Source of the DNA: a virus
Taxonomy: Duplodnaviria > Caudoviricetes
Strand: one strand, 5' to 3'
Virus record (IMG/VR): IMGVR_UViG_3300017645_000001
Span: 1 to 59,434 of that record
Length of the DNA stretch: 59,434 nt
Each line of letters starts with the position of its first letter. The stretch's first letter is position 1. Positions 27,238-38,482 of the stretch are shown piece after piece. A program made the position numbers and the translations under genes. The notes below the pieces were generated by a model. The model saw only the letters and a list, made by a program, of their open reading frames with translations. It was not told where the DNA came from and made no database searches.

Positions 27238-29229
27238 TTACCTGTTCAGGTCTTCAGCAAACCGCGAGAAGCGGTCGTTGCCTTTTGGCTTTGCCGACGA
27301 CGGGGGCGCTGAGTTGTCAGCCTCGACAGCCGCTCGCCTACGGCGCGCGCCCAGCTTGATATGCTGCACGTTCAGCATGTAGCCCGCGGCGGATGCCATC
27401 GCCTCGGCGTCGAGGAAATGGTTGTCGCGGGCCTTCTCAATCCAGACCGGCTTTCCGCCCGGTCCGCGCACCATCGCCTCGGCCACGATCTGTCGGCAAT
27501 AATCCTCGGTTACGTCCTCGGGCAGATGCCACGCGCCCGGTTGATCGAGCGGCCACGCCAGGCGTTCATGCACCCACGATTTCCAATGGTTCGGATCGAG
27601 CCGGATAAGGTCGAGCCCATACTTCGACTGCTTGCCCTGCTGCGTGACCTCGATCTTTCGCCGCACCAGCGGCGTCACCATCGCGTGGGAACTGCCCTTT
27701 GTCGCAAAAACGAAGCTGCGGAAGCGCCGCGCGAACTCGTAGACGCGATTAACTGGCACATCGAGCTTCTTGCCAGGCCGAAATCCGCTATCGACGAACG
27801 CCAGCTTGATCAACAGGCCATCGATCGGCGCGGTCAGCAGTTCTGCAAGATCATCCCAGACCTGCGGCTCCGCAGTGTTGCCCCACAACTCACCAAAACC
27901 GACCAGCCACGACGTAGCGCGGGCGCCCCATGCCCTCACCACCCACGGGATACGGTTCTTTTGAACGTCTCCACCGAAGGTCAGAAACAGCGCCTCATCC
28001 GGCACACTGCCGCAGGAATACGGCTCAGCGCGGGCCTTGATCGCCTCCCACTCCGGCAGATCACCACCATCGTCGGTGAATACCTCACCGAATCCAGCGT
28101 TGATAGCGACTTGGATCTTCTCAGCTTCGCCAGACTTGAGCGCCGTCAGGTATTCTTCAGCCCGCTCGCCAAGTGTTACGAAGGGCGAAGCAAGGCCGCT
28201 GCACCATCGCGAGAGCGTCGCGCTATCAGGCGGATCACCAACGACGTTGCCGTCTTCGTCGATCGTCTGACCTGGCGCCACATAGCGGCCAGCGGCATTC
28301 ATGCCGGCCTTGTCTTCCTCCCGAATGACGCAACCGTTCTTCGGGCACTCGATCCAGGCATCACGGCGCGCTTGAGCAGGCGTCGCTGCCTTCGGCCACC
28401 GCAGCAGCTTGAACCGCGGCACAAACCACTCACCGCAGTGAGGGCAGCGCCACACCCAATGATATCGCGTCCCCTCCTGCCAAAGCTTCCAGATGGGCGA
28501 GAAGTCCTCACCGGGGTCTTCGACCATCTTCCAGAACTCTAGGCCGTTCGCCGCGTCCCGCTCGATTTCGACCAGCCCGCGCGACGGCGTCGACGTAACC
28601 CCGACGACAAAGTCCGCGTAGGTGTAGCCGCGGGCCTCGACGAGCCCGAGCGGGTCGCCCTGCCCCTGCACATCGGTGCGCATCGCATCGTATTCGTCGA
28701 TTAGCGCGATTGCAGCCGGGTCGGACTTCAAAGCCGTCTGCGAACCCGCGTGCGCCAGACGCACCCGGACACCCGCAACGCGCTTGAGCGTCCGTTTCTG
28801 CCGCTTCCCCTCGACGCCGCCGATCATCTTCGTGTGCAGCGACGATTGCCGGAAAAGTTCGTTCAGCCGCGGCTCGAACTGGTCGGTATTGAACTCCTTC
28901 GACGGCCCGACATACAGGATTGGGGCTGGCCGGTTATCGAGACGCTCCCCGATGATGTCGAGAAAGGTCTCGGTTTTGCCCATCTGGGCACCCTCGACCT
29001 GAACAACCCGGCGATATCGCTGATCGCCAAAAGAGCGCCCAAACGGCACGTTGTAGGCCGCAAGATACGGGTCGCGCCGACCGGGCCTACCGGTTTCCGG
29101 TCCGTAAACCCTCTGCCGGCCCCACTCGTCAGGCTCCTGTCTCCTCGCTCTCCACAAGCACTTCGCGGCCAGCCCGTAAATCGCGCTCCGCTTGCTGGAA
29201 GCGGTCGCGACAGCGATCAATTGCCCCAT
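27238..29229 (-). CDS. Terminase large subunit (GpA family); true start may be slightly downstream
   Basis: GAQMGKTE Walker A, IDEYD Walker B, TSTP, CPHCGE, NHFLDAE. Confidence 0.95.
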   Translation of the reverse strand: MGQLIAVATASSKRSAIYGLAAKCLWRARRQEPDEWGRQRVYGPETGRPGRRDPYLAAYNVPFGRSFGDQRYRRVVQVEGAQMGKTETFLDIIGERLDNRPAPILYVGPSKEFNTDQFEPRLNELFRQSSLHTKMIGGVEGKRQKRTLKRVAGVRVRLAHAGSQTALKSDPAAIALIDEYDAMRTDVQGQGDPLGLVEARGYTYADFVVGVTSTPSRGLVEIERDAANGLEFWKMVEDPGEDFSPIWKLWQEGTRYHWVWRCPHCGEWFVPRFKLLRWPKAATPAQARRDAWIECPKNGCVIREEDKAGMNAAGRYVAPGQTIDEDGNVVGDPPDSATLSRWCSGLASPFVTLGERAEEYLTALKSGEAEKIQVAINAGFGEVFTDDGGDLPEWEAIKARAEPYSCGSVPDEALFLTFGGDVQKNRIPWVVRAWGARATSWLVGFGELWGNTAEPQVWDDLAELLTAPIDGLLIKLAFVDSGFRPGKKLDVPVNRVYEFARRFRSFVFATKGSSHAMVTPLVRRKIEVTQQGKQSKYGLDLIRLDPNHWKSWVHERLAWPLDQPGAWHLPEDVTEDYCRQIVAEAMVRGPGGKPVWIEKARDNHFLDAEAMASAAGYMLNVQHIKLGARRRRAAVEADNSAPPSSAKPKGNDRFSRFAEDLNR

Positions 29230-29710
29230 TCAGAGCACCTTCAATCGCCAACCGGGCGTCCAGATCGCGCGTCGCAGCAGCAGGGATGCCAGCAAGCTCA
29301 GAGCGAAACGTGCCAAGAATGTCGGCAACCACAGCAAAAACGTCATCGGTTTCGATAAGCTGGCCGTCTTCGCGCGCCATCCTCTGCTCAATTGCCCGCC
29401 GCTTCGTGGCCGCCAGACGAGCCTGCGGTGTGTCGGCCGCCGCCTTCTGCTCAAGATCGTCCCGATAGGCCAAATATCCGTCCAGAACGTCGCCGATCCG
29501 GTAGGCATTCGAGCCCGATTTCTTGATCCAGCCGGCCTTTGTAAGCTGCCGGACCCGCTCGCCACTGACTTTGATGATCGATCCAGCGTCGTCGGTGGAG
29601 ACGACCAGAGCCCGCCAATCTGTGACTTTCGCATGTCCCGATTTGGCGGGCCTTTTCGATTTCGATCCAGACTTTCGTCCCGATGGGCGTTTCGGCGGGC
29701 TCAATGGCAA
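29129..29710 (-). CDS. Terminase small subunit (Nu1-like)
   Basis: Winged HTH VSGERVRQLTKAG then coiled coil, EDGQLI; overlaps terL start. Confidence 0.8.
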   Translation of the reverse strand: MPLSPPKRPSGRKSGSKSKRPAKSGHAKVTDWRALVVSTDDAGSIIKVSGERVRQLTKAGWIKKSGSNAYRIGDVLDGYLAYRDDLEQKAAADTPQARLAATKRRAIEQRMAREDGQLIETDDVFAVVADILGTFRSELAGIPAAATRDLDARLAIEGALNGAIDRCRDRFQQAERDLRAGREVLVESEETGA

Positions 29711-29793
29711 AAACCCTAATCAAAACAGCGATTTCCAGAACCCGGGTATGCTCGAAGATCGGGCCGATCTATCGCCGCACTGCAAAGCACAAA

Positions 29794-29810
29794 AAACACG
29801 GTCCCTTTTC
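29794..29810 (+). promoter_or_regulatory. Protospacer-like target of the spacer at 37537-37567, in the terS-upstream (cos/late promoter) region
   Basis: AAACACGGTCCCTTTTC is the exact reverse complement of 37550-37566. Confidence 0.8.
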
Positions 29811-29860
29811 GCATCCGCGAACATTTGGGACCCACTTTCTTCGCACCCGCGAGATAGGCG

Positions 29861-30421
29861 TCAGAGCTTGCGGAGCACCTCGTGCTCCAGGCGTGCAGGC
29901 AGGTCTCTCTCCACTGTGGCGTGGAAGACCTTGAGGCTATCGCCACTCACCAACTCTTCGGCGATGAAGAGACCGCTCTTGACGGTCTTGAGCGGGTAGC
30001 GGGCCTTGCCTGCCCTGACGACTACGGCGCCGTTCATGCGCAGAGCGACACGGTTCGGGAAGTGTCCGCCCTTGGTGAAGGTCTTGGGGTAGAGCCTGCG
30101 CTTGCTCCAAGGGGCTGCGGTTACGCCTGCCCTTGTTTCTCGGGCAGAGAAGAACTTCAAGCGGATATCCCCGCCCTTGGCCTTGATCGTGTAGCCGGTG
30201 CTGCCGTGGAGCGCGGCGCGTGTGCTGGTGACCGCCTTGTTGATGGTCTTGCGCTTGAGCCCTGTCTGCTTGGGCAGGACTGCCCGCATGGCGGTGCGGG
30301 CCTTGTCCCCGGTGTGGTTGATTGCCCGGCGCATGGCGTCGGGCTGATCCTTTGCCAGTGCCGCGAAGCGGTTGCCGAGGTCTGCTAGAGCCTTGGCGTC
30401 AACGCGGACGTTGCTGAACAT
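29861..30421 (-). CDS. Minor tail / gpZ-like protein
   Basis: AMRRAINHTGDKART...QTGLK...RLEHEV. Confidence 0.7.
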   Translation of the reverse strand: MFSNVRVDAKALADLGNRFAALAKDQPDAMRRAINHTGDKARTAMRAVLPKQTGLKRKTINKAVTSTRAALHGSTGYTIKAKGGDIRLKFFSARETRAGVTAAPWSKRRLYPKTFTKGGHFPNRVALRMNGAVVVRAGKARYPLKTVKSGLFIAEELVSGDSLKVFHATVERDLPARLEHEVLRKL

Positions 30422-30600
30422 CAGCGCCTCGCAAGGTTGGCTTTGGCAGTAGCGATCTTGGACCGAAAGTCGCGGGCATCGTCGCGGATGGTGGCCGCGA
30501 TGTCGCGGACGCTGGCGCCGACGGTCTTGAGGTCGCCGCGGGCCACGGCTTTGGCAGCGGCCAGCATGTGCTGGCCGCGTTCGTTGCAGCGACAGCCCAT
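30421..30600 (-). CDS. Small hypothetical protein (59 aa; absent from ORF track)
   Basis: MGCRCNERGQHMLAAAKAVARGD...; stop overlaps the next ATG. Confidence 0.5.
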   Translation of the reverse strand: MGCRCNERGQHMLAAAKAVARGDLKTVGASVRDIAATIRDDARDFRSKIATAKANLARR

Positions 30601-30869
30601 AACGCTTTACCGTGCCGCTGCGCCCAATCTCACAGGAAGCACCTTTACCGGCCAAGGTGGCAGATAGTACATGCCGCGCCCGAGCCAAGAAAAGCCAAGA
30701 CGGAGCGAGATGAACCGTGGCGGCCACGTCTGATTGTCCGCCTTACCGTCTGCGTTTACGGGAATCCACTTCCACCCAATGAACGGGAGAAAACTGCCGA
30801 ACAGCGGATAACCGCCCTGACCACCAAGGCTCAAGATAAATTCGCCCGTATACTCGCAACGCCAAATCT

Positions 30870-37075: not shown

Positions 37076-38482
37076 TTATGCCTTCTTCAACGCCCGTTTT
37101 GCTTTGCGAACTGCCTTGCCAGCGGCAACGAGCTTTCCGCCGATGGCAATATTCGGTTGATCATCCTCAATGATGTCACACCGAATCCCTGCTTCCTCGG
37201 CCTTGTATCTGAGCATCTGAACCGCGAGGCCCGGTGCTTGGCCGAGAATATGTCTGTTGAGAGATGAAACCGTCTTGACGTTTGCGCCCCAGACCTTCGC
37301 GTCTCCACGGGGCGTAGCTGTAAGCGCCCTTACGTCGCTGGCGATTACCGAGATATCGCAAGCGGAACGCACGATGCTTGTGGACCATGCATGCAGCGCG
37401 TGCTTGCGCCGTCGCGCCTCCATCGCTCGAAGCCGAGCAACACGTCTTTTCTCACGACGCCAACGCCATGAGAACTTGCGGTACCGACGATCCCGTTCTG
37501 ACTGTACTCGATCTGCCAAATCGCCGGTGACGACACCCTGGATCGGAGTGAAAAGGGACCGTGTTTCCCTGTCGTCACCACCCAAATCGCCGGTGACGAC
37601 ACGGGATGTCGTCTTATGTTGTTGAGCTTGGGTGGTAATTTGCTCTTTCGAGCGGGCGAGACATTCGCCCTTCGCGCGCTCAACACGCGCAAACTCGTCA
37701 ATTAGATCAAACTTGATCTCTACTTTATCTGCACCCGCCGTCATGCGGGGCTTCATCTTCACAACGATTGAAACCCACCACGCGCCGTCACGACGCATGA
37801 TGACGCAATTCCGAATTGATTCAGGATCGGCGGGGAACTTGCCACGAGCCTTTATAAAGCCGGGGACGCCTTTGACATACATTCGCCAGATGTTTGACGA
37901 TTTACAATTTGCGGGTGTCTCGACCCGACATCGCCGTCTTCGGACTAAAACTGTTCTTTCATTCACCCCACAATTCGAGGTGGTCTCGGCCTGATCAGAA
38001 GATAACCCCCTCGAATTGCGACGTGATTTGCCGTTACGGCAGGCCGTGAACCGGCCCTTTTCGGATTTCTCCGAAAACTCTGAAGCGGAATACAGACGCC
38101 ATCCTCTTCCATGTTCTGGAAAAGGAATGCTGTTTCCGTCCTTTGTCCTCTTGTATCGCGGATAACCTGACGCCGCGCCCGCGCCAGACTTCGCGCGCTT
38201 GAAGAACGCTTTGAACGCATCGTCCAGTTTGAAGATAACTTGCGCCGGAGTACTTGCATTCAACTCCTGCCACTCCGGGCACTCGCGGCGCAAATGCTTG
38301 ATCTCTTTGCAAAGATCGTACGCGGATAGCGTCTTCCCTTCGCGGCGATAAACGTCCTCACGACGCTGCAAAGCAGCATTATACAACTCGGCGCACATCA
38401 CGGCATGACGATCTAGCGCGCGTTCCTGCTCGCGATTTTGGTAAAGTTTGAACGTGTAGCGCCGAGTCACGGGGTCGGACAT
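37076..38482 (-). CDS. tnpB: Nuclease-dead TnpB/Cas12-like RNA-guided protein with two in-frame insertions
   Basis: RRYTFKLY...LYNAAL..R...LDDAFKAFF.R...GYPRYK, WWVSI, LNR.IL...MLRYKAEEAG. RuvC-I and RuvC-II acidic residues replaced (VEIKFDL, VIASDV); Zn finger and RuvC-III absent. Confidence 0.85.
   Translation of the reverse strand: MSDPVTRRYTFKLYQNREQERALDRHAVMCAELYNAALQRREDVYRREGKTLSAYDLCKEIKHLRRECPEWQELNASTPAQVIFKLDDAFKAFFKRAKSGAGAASGYPRYKRTKDGNSIPFPEHGRGWRLYSASEFSEKSEKGRFTACRNGKSRRNSRGLSSDQAETTSNCGVNERTVLVRRRRCRVETPANCKSSNIWRMYVKGVPGFIKARGKFPADPESIRNCVIMRRDGAWWVSIVVKMKPRMTAGADKVEIKFDLIDEFARVERAKGECLARSKEQITTQAQQHKTTSRVVTGDLGGDDRETRSLFTPIQGVVTGDLADRVQSERDRRYRKFSWRWRREKRRVARLRAMEARRRKHALHAWSTSIVRSACDISVIASDVRALTATPRGDAKVWGANVKTVSSLNRHILGQAPGLAVQMLRYKAEEAGIRCDIIEDDQPNIAIGGKLVAAGKAVRKAKRALKKA
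37516..37602 (-). CRISPR. Intragenic mini-array B: 35-nt repeat, 31-nt spacer, 21-nt partial repeat
   Basis: GTGTCGTCACCGGCGATTTGGGTGGTGACGACAGG (37568-37602, hairpin GTCGTCACC/GGTGACGAC); spacer GAAACACGGTCCCTTTTCACTCCGATCCAGG; exact 21-nt second copy at 37516-37536. Confidence 0.75.
37603..37672 (-). ncRNA. Scaffold/anti-repeat preceding mini-array B
   Basis: Hairpins GGGCGA-ATGTC-TCGCCC and GCTC-GAAA-GAGC; TTACCACCCAA (37628-37638) can pair with repeat TTGGGTGGTGA. Confidence 0.5.
37904..37991 (-). CRISPR. Intragenic mini-array A: 36-nt repeat, 30-nt spacer, degenerate partial repeat
   Basis: GGCCGAGACCACCTCGAATTGTGGGGTGAATGAAAG (37956-37991, ends ATGAAAG); spacer AACAGTTTTAGTCCGAAGACGGCGATGTCG; second copy GGTCGAGACACCCGCAAATTGT, 17/22 identical. 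Confidence 0.6.
37992..38080 (-). ncRNA. Scaffold/anti-repeat preceding mini-array A
   Basis: GCAATTCGAGGGGGTT (38004-38019) pairs 15/16 (with G-U) with repeat GACCACCTCGAATTGT; hairpins at about 38029-38041 and 38058-38077. Confidence 0.5.

Follow-up and report, generated by a model that had tools for sequence, protein, structure and literature searches.

The interval 37904..38077 (minus strand) is best read, with moderate confidence, as the second of two guide-RNA modules located inside an open reading frame (ORF), serving the protein that this same ORF encodes. The window, by which we mean the whole stretch of 59,434 nt analysed from a phage record, holds two such modules, A and B, both in frame within the coding sequence of a TnpB-like gene (37076..38482, minus strand). 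As read here, each consists, 5′→3′ on the mRNA strand, of two short hairpins, an anti-repeat initiated by AAAUCA, a linker of approximately 20-35 nt and a 36-nt repeat complementary to the anti-repeat, after which come the guide of 30 nt and the decayed remnant of a second repeat. A second complete guide-RNA-like copy (scaffold, repeat and 30-base guide) inside an ORF is an arrangement absent from the literature searched, which yielded no paper on TnpB, TldR or Cas12 ORFs with internal guide modules or arrays.

Architecture and covariation of module A

All parts of module A are read from the minus strand, and its scaffold and repeat (37955..38061) match a covariance model, R1, over its full length. 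Hairpin 1 (HP1; GGCCG...CGGCC, 38041..38057) and hairpin 2 (HP2; GCCG-TAA-CGGC, 38030..38040, then AAATCA) were placed by alignment to the corresponding hairpins of the model. Immediately 5′ of the module an extra 8-bp hairpin, TTTTCGGAGAAATCCGAAAA (38058..38077), was seen in both the MFE and the centroid fold and is outside model R1. The hairpins are followed by anti-repeat A, TCACGTCGCAATTCGAGGGGGT (38005..38026), recognised as inverted repeat I3 and by RNAduplex, and by repeat A, GGCCGAGACCACCTCGAATTGTGGGGTGAATGAAAG (37956..37991). The putative guide, spacer A, AACAGTTTTAGTCCGAAGACGGCGATGTCG (37926..37955), was delimited by direct reading of the layout, and is succeeded by the degenerate partial repeat GGTCGAGACACCCGCAAATTGT (37904..37925), which agrees with the first repeat at 17 of 22 positions, 66 nt downstream. 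Past the partial repeat the conserved coding sequence resumes. The original prediction of a 36-nt repeat with the 3′ end ATGAAAG, a 30-nt spacer and a 17/22 second copy was thus borne out in each of its parts. The alignment of repeat A to the family repeat consensus places ...GGGGTGAATGAAAG opposite ...ggggGguGAcGGCAGG.

With one full and one partial repeat (17/22) the cassette has the two or more direct repeats at constant spacing that are expected of a CRISPR array; no array was called by Tandem Repeats Finder anywhere in the 59,434-nt window. When the surrounding 271-nt region was shuffled with dinucleotides preserved, none of 1000 shuffles produced 17/22 agreement at offset 66, and 2 of 200 did so at any offset of 40-90. 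The sense RNA (201 nt) folded to −76.8 kcal/mol (z = −4.68; none of 200 shuffles as low) and the antisense strand of the region gave z = −3.02.

The anti-repeat that had been claimed upstream of the repeat is real and covaries across 33 modules, but its stated pairing of 15/16 was too short. The inverted-repeat search gave arms of 22 nt at 38005-38026 and 37963-37984, the latter being the portion of repeat A complementary to the anti-repeat, with 82% complementarity and a gap of 20 nt. On a manual base-by-base reading of the sense RNA, two of the four mismatches are G-U pairs, and on this strand only, so that 20 of 22 positions pair. The duplex of anti-repeat A and repeat A was assigned −33.4 kcal/mol by RNAduplex (z = −6.7; 0/300 shuffles), the strongest among 16 modules tested. 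Repeat A alone has an internal stem of only 4 bp, unlike repeat B, within which a stem of approximately 10 bp forms; the cassette B region by itself folded no better than shuffles (z −1.6), though the repeat B hairpin is present.

Model R1 was built from the site-2 modules of 13 other loci, the window being excluded. Across the 59,434 nt, cmsearch with R1 returned exactly two strong matches, both on the gene strand and both spanning the full model: module B at variable site 2 (37567..37674, minus strand; 78 bits, E 1.8e-22) and module A (38061..37955; 43 bits, E 8.2e-12, model positions 1-129 of 129), these E-values resting on a shortened calibration. The next-best match outside the modules scored 13.5 bits. 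Since a model made from other loci finds both cassettes at full length, A and B are diverged paralogues of one module, and the earlier view of an unrelated repeat family and two independent captures is not supported. Judged from its sequence, module A is a paralogous copy of the whole module, comprising two hairpins, anti-repeat, repeat and guide. The likeness in layout to cassette B did hold: in each, 36 nt of repeat and 30 nt of spacer are followed by a second repeat of which only the initial 21-22 nt are present. In B these are repeat B (37567..37602, part of module B), spacer B (37537..37566, by direct reading) and a 21-nt partial repeat (37516..37536, an exact 21-nt direct repeat at a spacing of 66), all on the minus strand, and the register of the anti-repeat:repeat helix is common to the two modules.

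Covariation of the repeat:anti-repeat duplex, put forward by the original prediction as a check, is evident across the 33 modules. The helix was paired at 74.6%, versus 58.5 ± 2.2 in shuffles (0/500), and showed changes on both sides in 9 of 9 pairs, the helix-3 register having been taken from the window's own two modules before counting. HP1 was paired at 98.5% with compensatory changes in four of six pairs, and HP2 at 96.6% with such changes in three of four. The covariation score was 0.429; shuffles gave 0.158 (none of 500 as high), and sliding the partners gave no more than 0.133. Module A thus combines a complementary anti-repeat with compensatory changes in the manner of a tracrRNA:crRNA pair. 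Repeat sequences vary from locus to locus, yet each still pairs with its own anti-repeat in cis.

These data bear on the alternative that the interval is a fortuitous resemblance, a plain protein linker or an inserted small mobile element (MITE or REP). Long open frames do persist in high-GC genomes, and the gene call of the source record (P0002) begins only at Met199, past the module A insertion. We nevertheless find this explanation hardly credible in view of the R1 match (E 8e-12), the shuffles that failed to reach the repeat match (0/1000) or the fold energy (0/200), and the compensatory changes. Nor is the module dispersed as such an element would be: the window contains two copies, both in this gene, and related records one or two.

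Distribution of the module and difference of the spacer in a relative

R1 matches in 66 family loci lay on the strand of the gene in 35 of 35 cases, and the scaffold hairpins were found only within or adjoining this TnpB-like gene family (35/35 at the gene). Related records gave 1-2 R1 matches each and a 5.2-Mb host MAG gave one, while a search of Rfam matched the module to no family. A second module copy at site 1, the position of module A, occurs also in L026, L073 and L106; in L003, L011, L031, L045, L053, L104, L025, L037 and L054 the second copy is outside the ORF. The hairpins are present in these extragenic copies as well, and coding constraint therefore cannot account for them there. 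L028 is the same as L025, its tree label 'noR1' reflects omission from the R1 search, and the quick family tree, rooted at the midpoint only, carries no claim of evolutionary direction.

The lower score of module A relative to module B (43 vs 78 bits), the decay of its second repeat to 17/22 and the still weaker scores of the other site-1 copies (L026 40 bits, L106 30, L073 24.5) indicate that site-1 modules may be decaying. The L026 copy, in a reading of alignment A4, has no distinct spacer, conserved coding sequence following it directly. Module A could accordingly be a decaying duplicate, either a formerly working copy of the site-2 module or a transposed extragenic copy, carried as a neutral in-frame passenger in a permissive loop; that searches with spacer A gave no target would agree with this. 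We hold such decay to be rather unlikely, although it deserves consideration, because the duplex of module A is the strongest of the 16, HP1 and HP2 are intact, and a 94% identical relative has other letters at spacer A while its flanks are kept.

The phage occurs in soil and biofilm samples (X1-X15), and the evidence for this spacer difference is a single X11 contig of low depth (4.6). It matches 37568-37926 with 20 differences in 359 aligned nt (~94% identity), and at either end its further sequence departs from that of the window, so that the match ends within 1-2 nt of the edges of spacer B and spacer A. An invariant spacer had been named beforehand as evidence against a cassette, and the relative, by ceasing to match at the inner edges of both spacers, favours one. 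The pattern of differing spacers and kept repeats in close relatives that characterises CRISPR arrays is therefore seen at both spacers in this one contig. The spacer letters of the relative had no match in the window at up to three or up to two mismatches. Different letters at spacer A between retained flanks suggest, as far as sequence comparison can tell, replacement of the spacer rather than slow decay.

The spacer evidence is weakened by another X11 record, which ends at 37949, inside spacer A. Holes in contig cover at 37880-37971 (X2) and 37864-38044 (X4) carry no evidential weight. The one RNA-library contig over 37919-38069, with 19 differences, does not reveal its strand and may stem from DNA carry-over; transcription is not demonstrated by the X16 contigs from RNA libraries.

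The host gene and candidate targets of its spacers

The ORF at 37076..38482 encodes a protein of 468 aa that was assigned to the TnpB superfamily by profiles and by fold. Its N-terminal residues 1-50 match Pfam HTH_OrfB_IS605 (PF12323; E 1.2e-9), and the whole protein scored 108.9 bits with NCBIfam guided_TnpB (cut-off 100). The AF2 model (pLDDT 83.6) has ISDra2 TnpB, 8exa_A (E 2.3e-15) and 8h1j_A, as its top Foldseek matches, in accordance with the N-terminal HTH_OrfB / WED-REC architecture and the fold of TnpB. The best sequence match of the C-terminal half is a chain of 9j09, titled in the Foldseek listing as an RdCas12n-sgRNA-DNA complex.

The first RuvC Asp (FDLID) is retained. When the profile is aligned with a solved Cas12n/TnpB chain, the RuvC-II motif 'fEDLnv' stands opposite 'viAPPik' (VIASDV in the window), and the RuvC-II glutamate is thereby absent. 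The whole ZnF/RuvC-III end is missing, the protein stopping approximately 30 residues past the YKAxEAG motif, and Pfam Cas12f1-like_TNB reached only 12 bits in it (cut-off 26.3). The complete RuvC D-E-D triad and zinc-finger/TNB domain of an active nuclease are accordingly lacking, and the protein is probably nuclease-dead and TldR-like, with the inactivated RuvC and truncated C-terminus by which TldR are recognised among TnpB homologues.

A profile search found no Cas1 in the 59,434-nt phage record. The Y1 transposase PF01797 was likewise not found in it, while the positive control was found in 6 of 14 reference genomes; the Y1 TnpA that together with LE/RE ends defines an IS200/IS605 transposon is thus missing from the record. 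The search of IMG/VR with the single 468-aa protein returned no loci of close relatives, and GenBank phages contained no member of the gene family, only the distant TnpBs of Thermus phages.

Module A lies at approximately codons 134-193, in frame and free of stops, where the shortest homologues have a loop of 13 aa. In the AF2 model pLDDT falls below 50 only at residues 148-188 and 287-315, which are the two insertions. The same constraint is apparent in the family: 41 of 41 non-redundant intragenic repeat units are multiples of three, versus 62 of 150 outside genes (Fisher p 2e-13), the intragenic lengths being 66 nt (25 units), 72 (7), 60 (5), 75 (3) and 57 (1), and no in-frame stop was found within any inserted array. 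A CRISPR locus is expected to be non-coding, with a leader and adaptation genes; here the cassette is in frame inside an ORF, without Cas1.

Searches with spacer A gave no convincing target. In an ungapped scan of the window the best match was 19/30, compared with a mean of 18.7 and a maximum of 22 for shuffled spacers, and the 16/27 match at 29724-29750 near terS put forward in the original prediction is at chance level. The first 17 nt had no site in the window at up to four mismatches, and the first 20 nt no exact match in IMG/VR. With up to three mismatches spacer A was found 0 times in 401 genomes of the class to which the host of one homologue (G005) belongs. Blastn yielded none in GenBank plasmids and, in GenBank phages, nothing better than 23/26 at E 0.6, confined to a single lineage of Erwinia jumbo phages. 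No target having been found, spacer A is probably directed at the host or at a competing element rather than at the phage itself.

Spacer B, on the other hand, has a self-target at 29794..29810 (plus strand) that is an exact match (17/17) to its first 17 nt; the control of 200 shuffles, which used the 17-nt prefix of spacer A and not of spacer B, reached at best 14/17 in the window. The site is in a 150-nt gap upstream of the small-terminase-side operon, flanked by terL (27238-29229) and a neck/tail-completion-like gene (29861-30727). A scan of 29600-29950 for promoters and terminators found none, including no sigma-70-like promoter, and the first 20 nt of spacer B had no exact match in IMG/VR. 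In locus L003 the first intragenic spacer has a full-length match (30/30) elsewhere in the same genome, within a replication-like ORF. This spacer is in the same sense as the mRNA of that ORF and hence cannot act as antisense RNA, and together with the match of spacer B it speaks for DNA as what the guides are aimed at. No TAM emerged from the two targets.

One may also consider the module as a cis-regulatory binding site by which the protein limits the translation or stability of its own mRNA, the 'spacer' then having no guide role. TnpB processes its own mRNA into omega-RNA, the scaffold here is mid-message on the sense strand, and the failure to find a target for spacer A is in keeping with this view. 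Such a role is nonetheless improbable as the sole function, as it leaves unexplained the repeat-spacer-repeat layout, the arrays of up to seven repeat units with unique spacers in homologues, the self-targets of sister modules (17/17 and 30/30) and the different spacer of the close relative. Autoregulation could exist in addition to guiding.

A proposed self-contained regulator and its relation to known systems

Under the guide-module reading, the transcript of the gene would be both message and guide precursor, and the peptide encoded by the module would be accommodated as a disordered loop on the protein surface. The protein may bind the scaffold, either in the mRNA or as a processed fragment, and the guide would direct it to complementary DNA without cutting, most likely with repression of transcription as the outcome. 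We give about an even chance to a broader interpretation, a self-contained programmable regulator made up of one gene, whose mRNA is the pre-guide RNA and whose in-ORF arrays, with exchangeable spacers, are read as both peptide and guides. Module B would silence the packaging/late operon of the phage and module A would be aimed outside the phage, the clades with in-ORF and with external arrays representing two states of one route between omega-RNA and CRISPR array.

Guides and multi-spacer arrays in the frame of their own effector would constitute a new packing of an RNA-guided system. Such packing implies dual selection, for RNA structure and guide as well as for an open frame, which is seen as the multiples-of-three rule. 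Single modules within the ORF, arrays within the ORF and ordinary arrays outside it all occur in the family, which makes the passage from omega-RNA to CRISPR array directly testable, and a protein of approximately 400 aa with guides within its own gene would be a very compact programmable DNA binder. Loci of this kind are missed by gene callers and CRISPR finders alike, as exemplified here by the gene call past the insertion and the silence of Tandem Repeats Finder.

Virus-borne mini-CRISPR arrays copy the repeat of the host and rely on host Cas proteins. Module A resembles these arrays and solitary repeat units in its short repeat-spacer-repeat form and in a virus without adaptation genes, and it might be supposed that the phage borrows a host Cas effector for an array merely located inside the gene. 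Repeats of 36 nt and spacers of 30 nt are the usual sizes of type II arrays, an anti-repeat is present and the phage has no Cas1 of its own. Unlike in mini-CRISPR arrays, the repeat is part of a scaffold co-occurring only with this TnpB-like gene and is tied to two covarying hairpins, 35/35 at this gene family. We therefore judge such borrowing very improbable, the more so as a 5.2-Mb host MAG has only one R1 match, Rfam gave no family, and repeats that differ between loci are each paired with their own cis anti-repeat. The suggestion that the cassette loads a different host Cas effector is for the same reason unlikely, since the module travels with this gene only.

The gene shares protein family and fold with canonical TnpB of IS200/IS605, as well as a scaffold that overlaps coding sequence and has the guide at its 3′ side, a layout that is that of an omega-RNA (reRNA) or a natural single-guide RNA. 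It differs from canonical TnpB in that the phage has no Y1 transposase, the catalytic Glu and third RuvC motif are missing, the scaffold is internal and not at the 3′ end, a repeat recurs downstream of the guide, and the guide, instead of consisting of transposon-flanking DNA, is exchangeable. With type V CRISPR-Cas systems employing a tracrRNA (Cas12f, Cas12n), and with natural or engineered sgRNAs, it has in common an anti-repeat:repeat duplex that precedes a spacer on the 3′ side and, in relatives of this gene, repeat-spacer arrays with unique spacers. Unlike in type V systems, the transcript that carries the repeat also carries the anti-repeat, in cis and 20 nt further upstream, the effector ORF encloses the array in multiples of three, there is no Cas1, and the effector is probably nuclease-inactive.

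A close parallel is offered by the TldR, TnpB-like nuclease-dead repressors that are TnpB homologues with inactivated RuvC and/or truncated C-terminus, a paper on which comprises 506 proteins (Wiegand et al., bioRxiv 10.1101/2023.11.30.569447). The present gene departs from TldR in having modules mid-ORF at two loop sites, two per gene and translated in frame, and in the multi-spacer arrays of its relatives. From a TldR one expects a guide that matches a TAM-flanked site in a promoter; here a scaffold and guide are present, but within the ORF, and the match of guide B is intergenic, ahead of the terminase-side operon. The systems are alike in the TnpB fold, the deteriorated RuvC site, the truncated ZnF/RuvC C-terminus and the frequent carriage by phages. 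In both, moreover, the guide RNA is encoded at the gene and joins an invariant scaffold to a guide on the 3′ side, and DNA binding and repression would be expected of both.

The host gene and its two insertions

The whole of 37904-38080 is enclosed by a TnpB-like ORF of 468 aa on the minus strand (37076..38482) of this complete virus record of 59,434 nt. The encoded protein matches guided_TnpB (NCBIfam) at 108.9 bits, the cut-off being 100, and its residues 1-50 are Pfam HTH_OrfB_IS605; it is a member of the TnpB family. The top structural matches of its AF2 model (built on 55 homologues; pLDDT 83.6, pTM 0.73) are to ISDra2 TnpB (8exa_A, E 2.3e-15; 8h1j_A), followed by dCas12f and Cas12f. In a profile alignment against the solved chains, RuvC-II 'fEDLnv' stands opposite the family's 'viAPPik' (VIASDV in the window) and the protein ends soon past the YKAxEAG motif, with zinc finger and RuvC-III absent, while the first RuvC Asp (FDLID) is retained. 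The altered RuvC-II and the missing zinc finger and RuvC-III argue that, by sequence, the protein is a TldR-type TnpB, nuclease-dead and truncated at its C-terminus, as TldR is defined in excerpts of 10.1101/2023.11.30.569447. The neighbouring genes are those of replication and recombination, and neither Cas1 nor Y1 TnpA was found in the phage record.

Two hypervariable sites were evident in an alignment of 55 proteins, made up of the window's protein plus 54 from a set of 98 homologues. Site 1 (between window residues 128 and 204) comprises 75 aa in the window but no more than 13 aa where it is shortest, and site 2 (between FDLIDEFA and SxRDRR) 62 aa versus a minimum of 26 aa; the cassette under study, module A, is the site-1 insertion and cassette B the site-2 insertion. 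In the AF2 model pLDDT falls below 50 solely in the two insertions, at 148-168, 170-188 and 287-315, and exceeds 90 in the strands flanking them. The recorded protein P0002 (37076-37882, 268 aa) begins at Met199, immediately past the site-1 insertion, leaving the N-terminal 198 residues unannotated; the gene caller did not cross module A.

Structure and recurrence of the putative guide-RNA module

The elements of the original prediction were all located on the minus strand: a 36-nt repeat ending in ATGAAAG (37991..37956), a 30-nt spacer (37955..37926), a 22-nt partial second copy exactly 66 nt downstream (37925..37904; 17/22 match) and an upstream anti-repeat (38026..38005) with its partner at 37984..37963. 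The observation of a cassette at 37904-38080 stands. Not one dinucleotide shuffle in 1000 produced a 17/22 copy at offset 66; with every offset between 40 and 90 allowed, 2 of 200 did. The 22-nt anti-repeat arms are 82% complementary, and a base-by-base reading that allows for two G-U pairs in the sense strand brings the pairing to 20/22. As sense RNA, 38090..37890 has a folding energy of -76.8 kcal/mol (z -4.68; 0/200 shuffles as low); the antisense gives z -3.02.

Thirteen related loci share, 5' of the first site-2 repeat, two hairpins, GAAUCA, a linker and a repeat ending in ...GACGGCAGG; RNAalifold recovered both hairpins, with compensatory changes. A covariance model, R1, was trained on 13 site-2 sequences, excluding the window and the poorly aligning L025, and scanned against the window with all filters off. 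It matched cassette B (37674..37567) at 78 bits (E 1.8e-22) and module A (38061..37955) at 43 bits (E 8.2e-12) over model positions 1-129 of 129, the third-ranking match scoring 13.5 bits; these E-values are rough owing to a shortened calibration, of which the gap in bit score is independent. Given the full-length match, the site-1 cassette is paralogous to the module at site 2 and has diverged from it. An unrelated repeat family and two independent captures had been proposed, which is contradicted by the matching of both cassettes by R1 and by the alignment of repeat A, its end 'ATGAAAG' opposite the family 'ACGGCAGG'. The R1 alignment places hairpin 1 at 38057..38041, hairpin 2 at 38040..38030 and AAATCA with the anti-repeat at 38029..38005, followed by linker and repeat. 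An additional 8-bp hairpin, TTTTCGGAGAAATCCGAAAA, lies outside R1 directly 5' of module A (38058-38077, minus strand).

Covariation was tested on 33 modules aligned to R1, which includes both hairpins (HP1, HP2) and a repeat-internal stem and leaves out the anti-repeat helix. Pairing reached 98.5% in HP1, 96.6% in HP2 and 74.6% in the anti-repeat:repeat helix, where all 9 pairs showed changes on both sides. The covariation score was 0.429 for the whole structure (0.158 shuffled, 0/500; slid partners at most 0.133) and 0.362 for the anti-repeat helix alone (0.163 shuffled, 0/500; slid partners at most 0.201), with a small bias since the helix register was taken from the window's two modules. 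RNAduplex gave p < 0.05 in 11/16 modules, module A being the strongest (-33.4 kcal/mol, z -6.7). The pairing of the proposed tracr-like anti-repeat is thus supported; its placement is in cis, like that of an omega-RNA or single-guide RNA.

Across 66 family loci R1 gave 35 matches at E <=0.001, every one on the strand of the gene. A second module was found at site 1 in L026, L073 and L106, and outside the ORF in L003, L011, L031, L045, L053, L104, L025, L037 and L054; as the extragenic copies retain the hairpins, coding constraint is not their cause. No similar family was found in Rfam. In whole records R1 matched at the gene only (2, 1 and 2 matches in three phage records, 1 in a 5.2-Mb MAG), and a dispersed element was rejected on these grounds; a fourth phage record, with arrays of another repeat type, had none. 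The notion that the module is chance or a mobile element explains less and is hardly credible. In L003 (4621-4823) the coding scaffold of about 70 nt preceding site 2 is duplicated nearly exactly some 270 nt past the stop codon, and is followed by two further repeat-spacer units.

In-frame arrays across the family

In other members, sites 1 and 2 are occupied by exact peptide repeats alternating with variable spacers at a fixed period, for instance GAEPLQMRGDDR followed by 10 aa, or SSRARGEEG followed by 11 aa; at the DNA level the units measure 66 or 60 nt. We surveyed 177 related loci, re-locating genes by tblastn, for exact direct repeats spaced 50-90 nt, units identical across loci being counted once. 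All 41 intragenic units were divisible by 3 (66 nt x25, 72 x7, 60 x5, 75 x3, 57 x1) versus 62/150 extragenic units (Fisher p 2e-13), 'inside' meaning between the outermost tblastn matches, so that two L041 units may sit immediately 5' of the start. Five loci had in-frame stops, none within an inserted array. The arrays in the ORF are therefore translated and evolving under frame constraint. With repeats and unique spacers they look like CRISPR arrays; that the module is a mini-array for a host Cas explains less and is very unlikely.

In many other members the sites are minimal (site 2 of 78 nt), and most of these carry ordinary arrays adjoining the gene, with 36-37-nt repeats and units of 72-82 nt. 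Minimal loops with such arrays beside the gene characterize a large clade (L005, L006, L010, L016, L017, L019, L101 and others; for example L006 4622-4950), several of its loci being in viral contigs; the repeat there is of another type (e.g. GTTTCAACACCCGGCTCGCCGGGCCAAAAGCGAGAG) and R1 does not match these loci. In-ORF arrays of a third repeat type, with up to 7 repeats, occur at L063 1425-1900 and L014 3571-3860; no unit size other than 72 or 75 nt (36- or 39-nt spacers) is seen in them, so that the frame is kept. In L041 a 32-nt spacer of an upstream array (1306-1343), whose 28-nt repeat (unit 60/61) is a shortened family repeat, is identical to a site-1 array spacer (L041 1923-1954; L023 2978-3009).

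A quick tree of 45 genes, with midpoint rooting only and hence uninformative on evolutionary direction, placed the window and L003 as sisters (support 95) to a 26-row clade (support 96) lacking R1 modules, which unites members with in-ORF 72/75-nt arrays and members with external arrays. The remaining module-bearing genes branch outside this clade.

Candidate guide targets and relation to known systems

The first 17 nt of spacer B (37566..37537) match the window exactly at 29794-29810 (+), inside the 150 nt that separate the terminase side from a neck/tail-completion-like gene; shuffled 17-nt prefixes, of spacer A and not of spacer B (n=200), reached 14/17 at best. This match suggests an effective guide of about 17 nt and a putative self-regulation of packaging or late genes. 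The site is intergenic, upstream of the terminase-side operon, and the remaining 13 nt of spacer B (37537-37566, minus strand) match it poorly (20/30 overall). The first intragenic spacer of L003 has a 30/30 match in its own phage, within a replication-like ORF of 433 aa and in the sense of that ORF's mRNA; this guide therefore cannot work as antisense to the message, and DNA is its expected pairing partner. Sister modules have DNA-sense self-targets. In L106 the first site-1 spacer (1726-1758) holds 18-19 nt identical to the same gene's site-2 repeat (2226-2309), apparently directing one of the two modules against its partner.

For spacer A no target was found in the window, IMG/VR, 401 bacterial genomes, GenBank phages or GenBank plasmids, and the 16/27 alignment near terS noted previously is at chance level. 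Near-identical DNA is present in soil and biofilm metagenomes of several studies. A contig of sequencing run X11 (426 nt, depth 4.6) matches 37568-37926 with 20 differences in 359 aligned nt and has at its ends roughly 30-35 letters per side unlike the window, the match stopping at most 1-2 nt from two edges, the one where spacer B meets its repeat and the one where spacer A meets the partial repeat; a second X11 contig aligns to 38026-38175 and differs at 2 positions. An invariant spacer had been held to speak against a guide; the spacer is not invariant, as judged by this single low-depth contig that diverges there. X11 also yielded a record that breaks off at 37949 and is unexplained. In X16, a sludge metatranscriptome RNA-seq library, contigs cover 37919-38069 over module A (19 differences) and 37637-37787 at the start of module B (0 differences); they show neither strand nor transcription.

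The main rival is that module A is a decaying duplicate, favoured by its score below that of module B, its decayed second repeat, the lack of a target for spacer A in the searches made and the weak site-1 copies of other loci. We consider this unlikely, as the duplex of module A is the strongest among the modules and the relative carries a different spacer. An autoregulatory protein-binding site explains less and is more doubtful still. We favour, with moderate confidence, the reading of module A as a second guide RNA that is embedded in the ORF, serves the dead TnpB encoded there and has a target outside the phage; its RNA would be processed, loaded and used in repression.

No member of this TnpB-like family was found in GenBank phages, and neither full-text literature searches nor the excerpted TldR preprint (10.1101/2023.11.30.569447) yielded a description of guide modules or arrays within a TnpB, TldR or Cas12 ORF. 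Within the reach of these searches, an effector gene that carries guide modules and arrays in its own frame is a new architecture. The system of the window belongs with the RNA-guided proteins of the TnpB/TldR type; in excerpts of the same preprint TldR guides are adjacently encoded and essentially single, whereas in this family modules and arrays lie in frame within the ORF.
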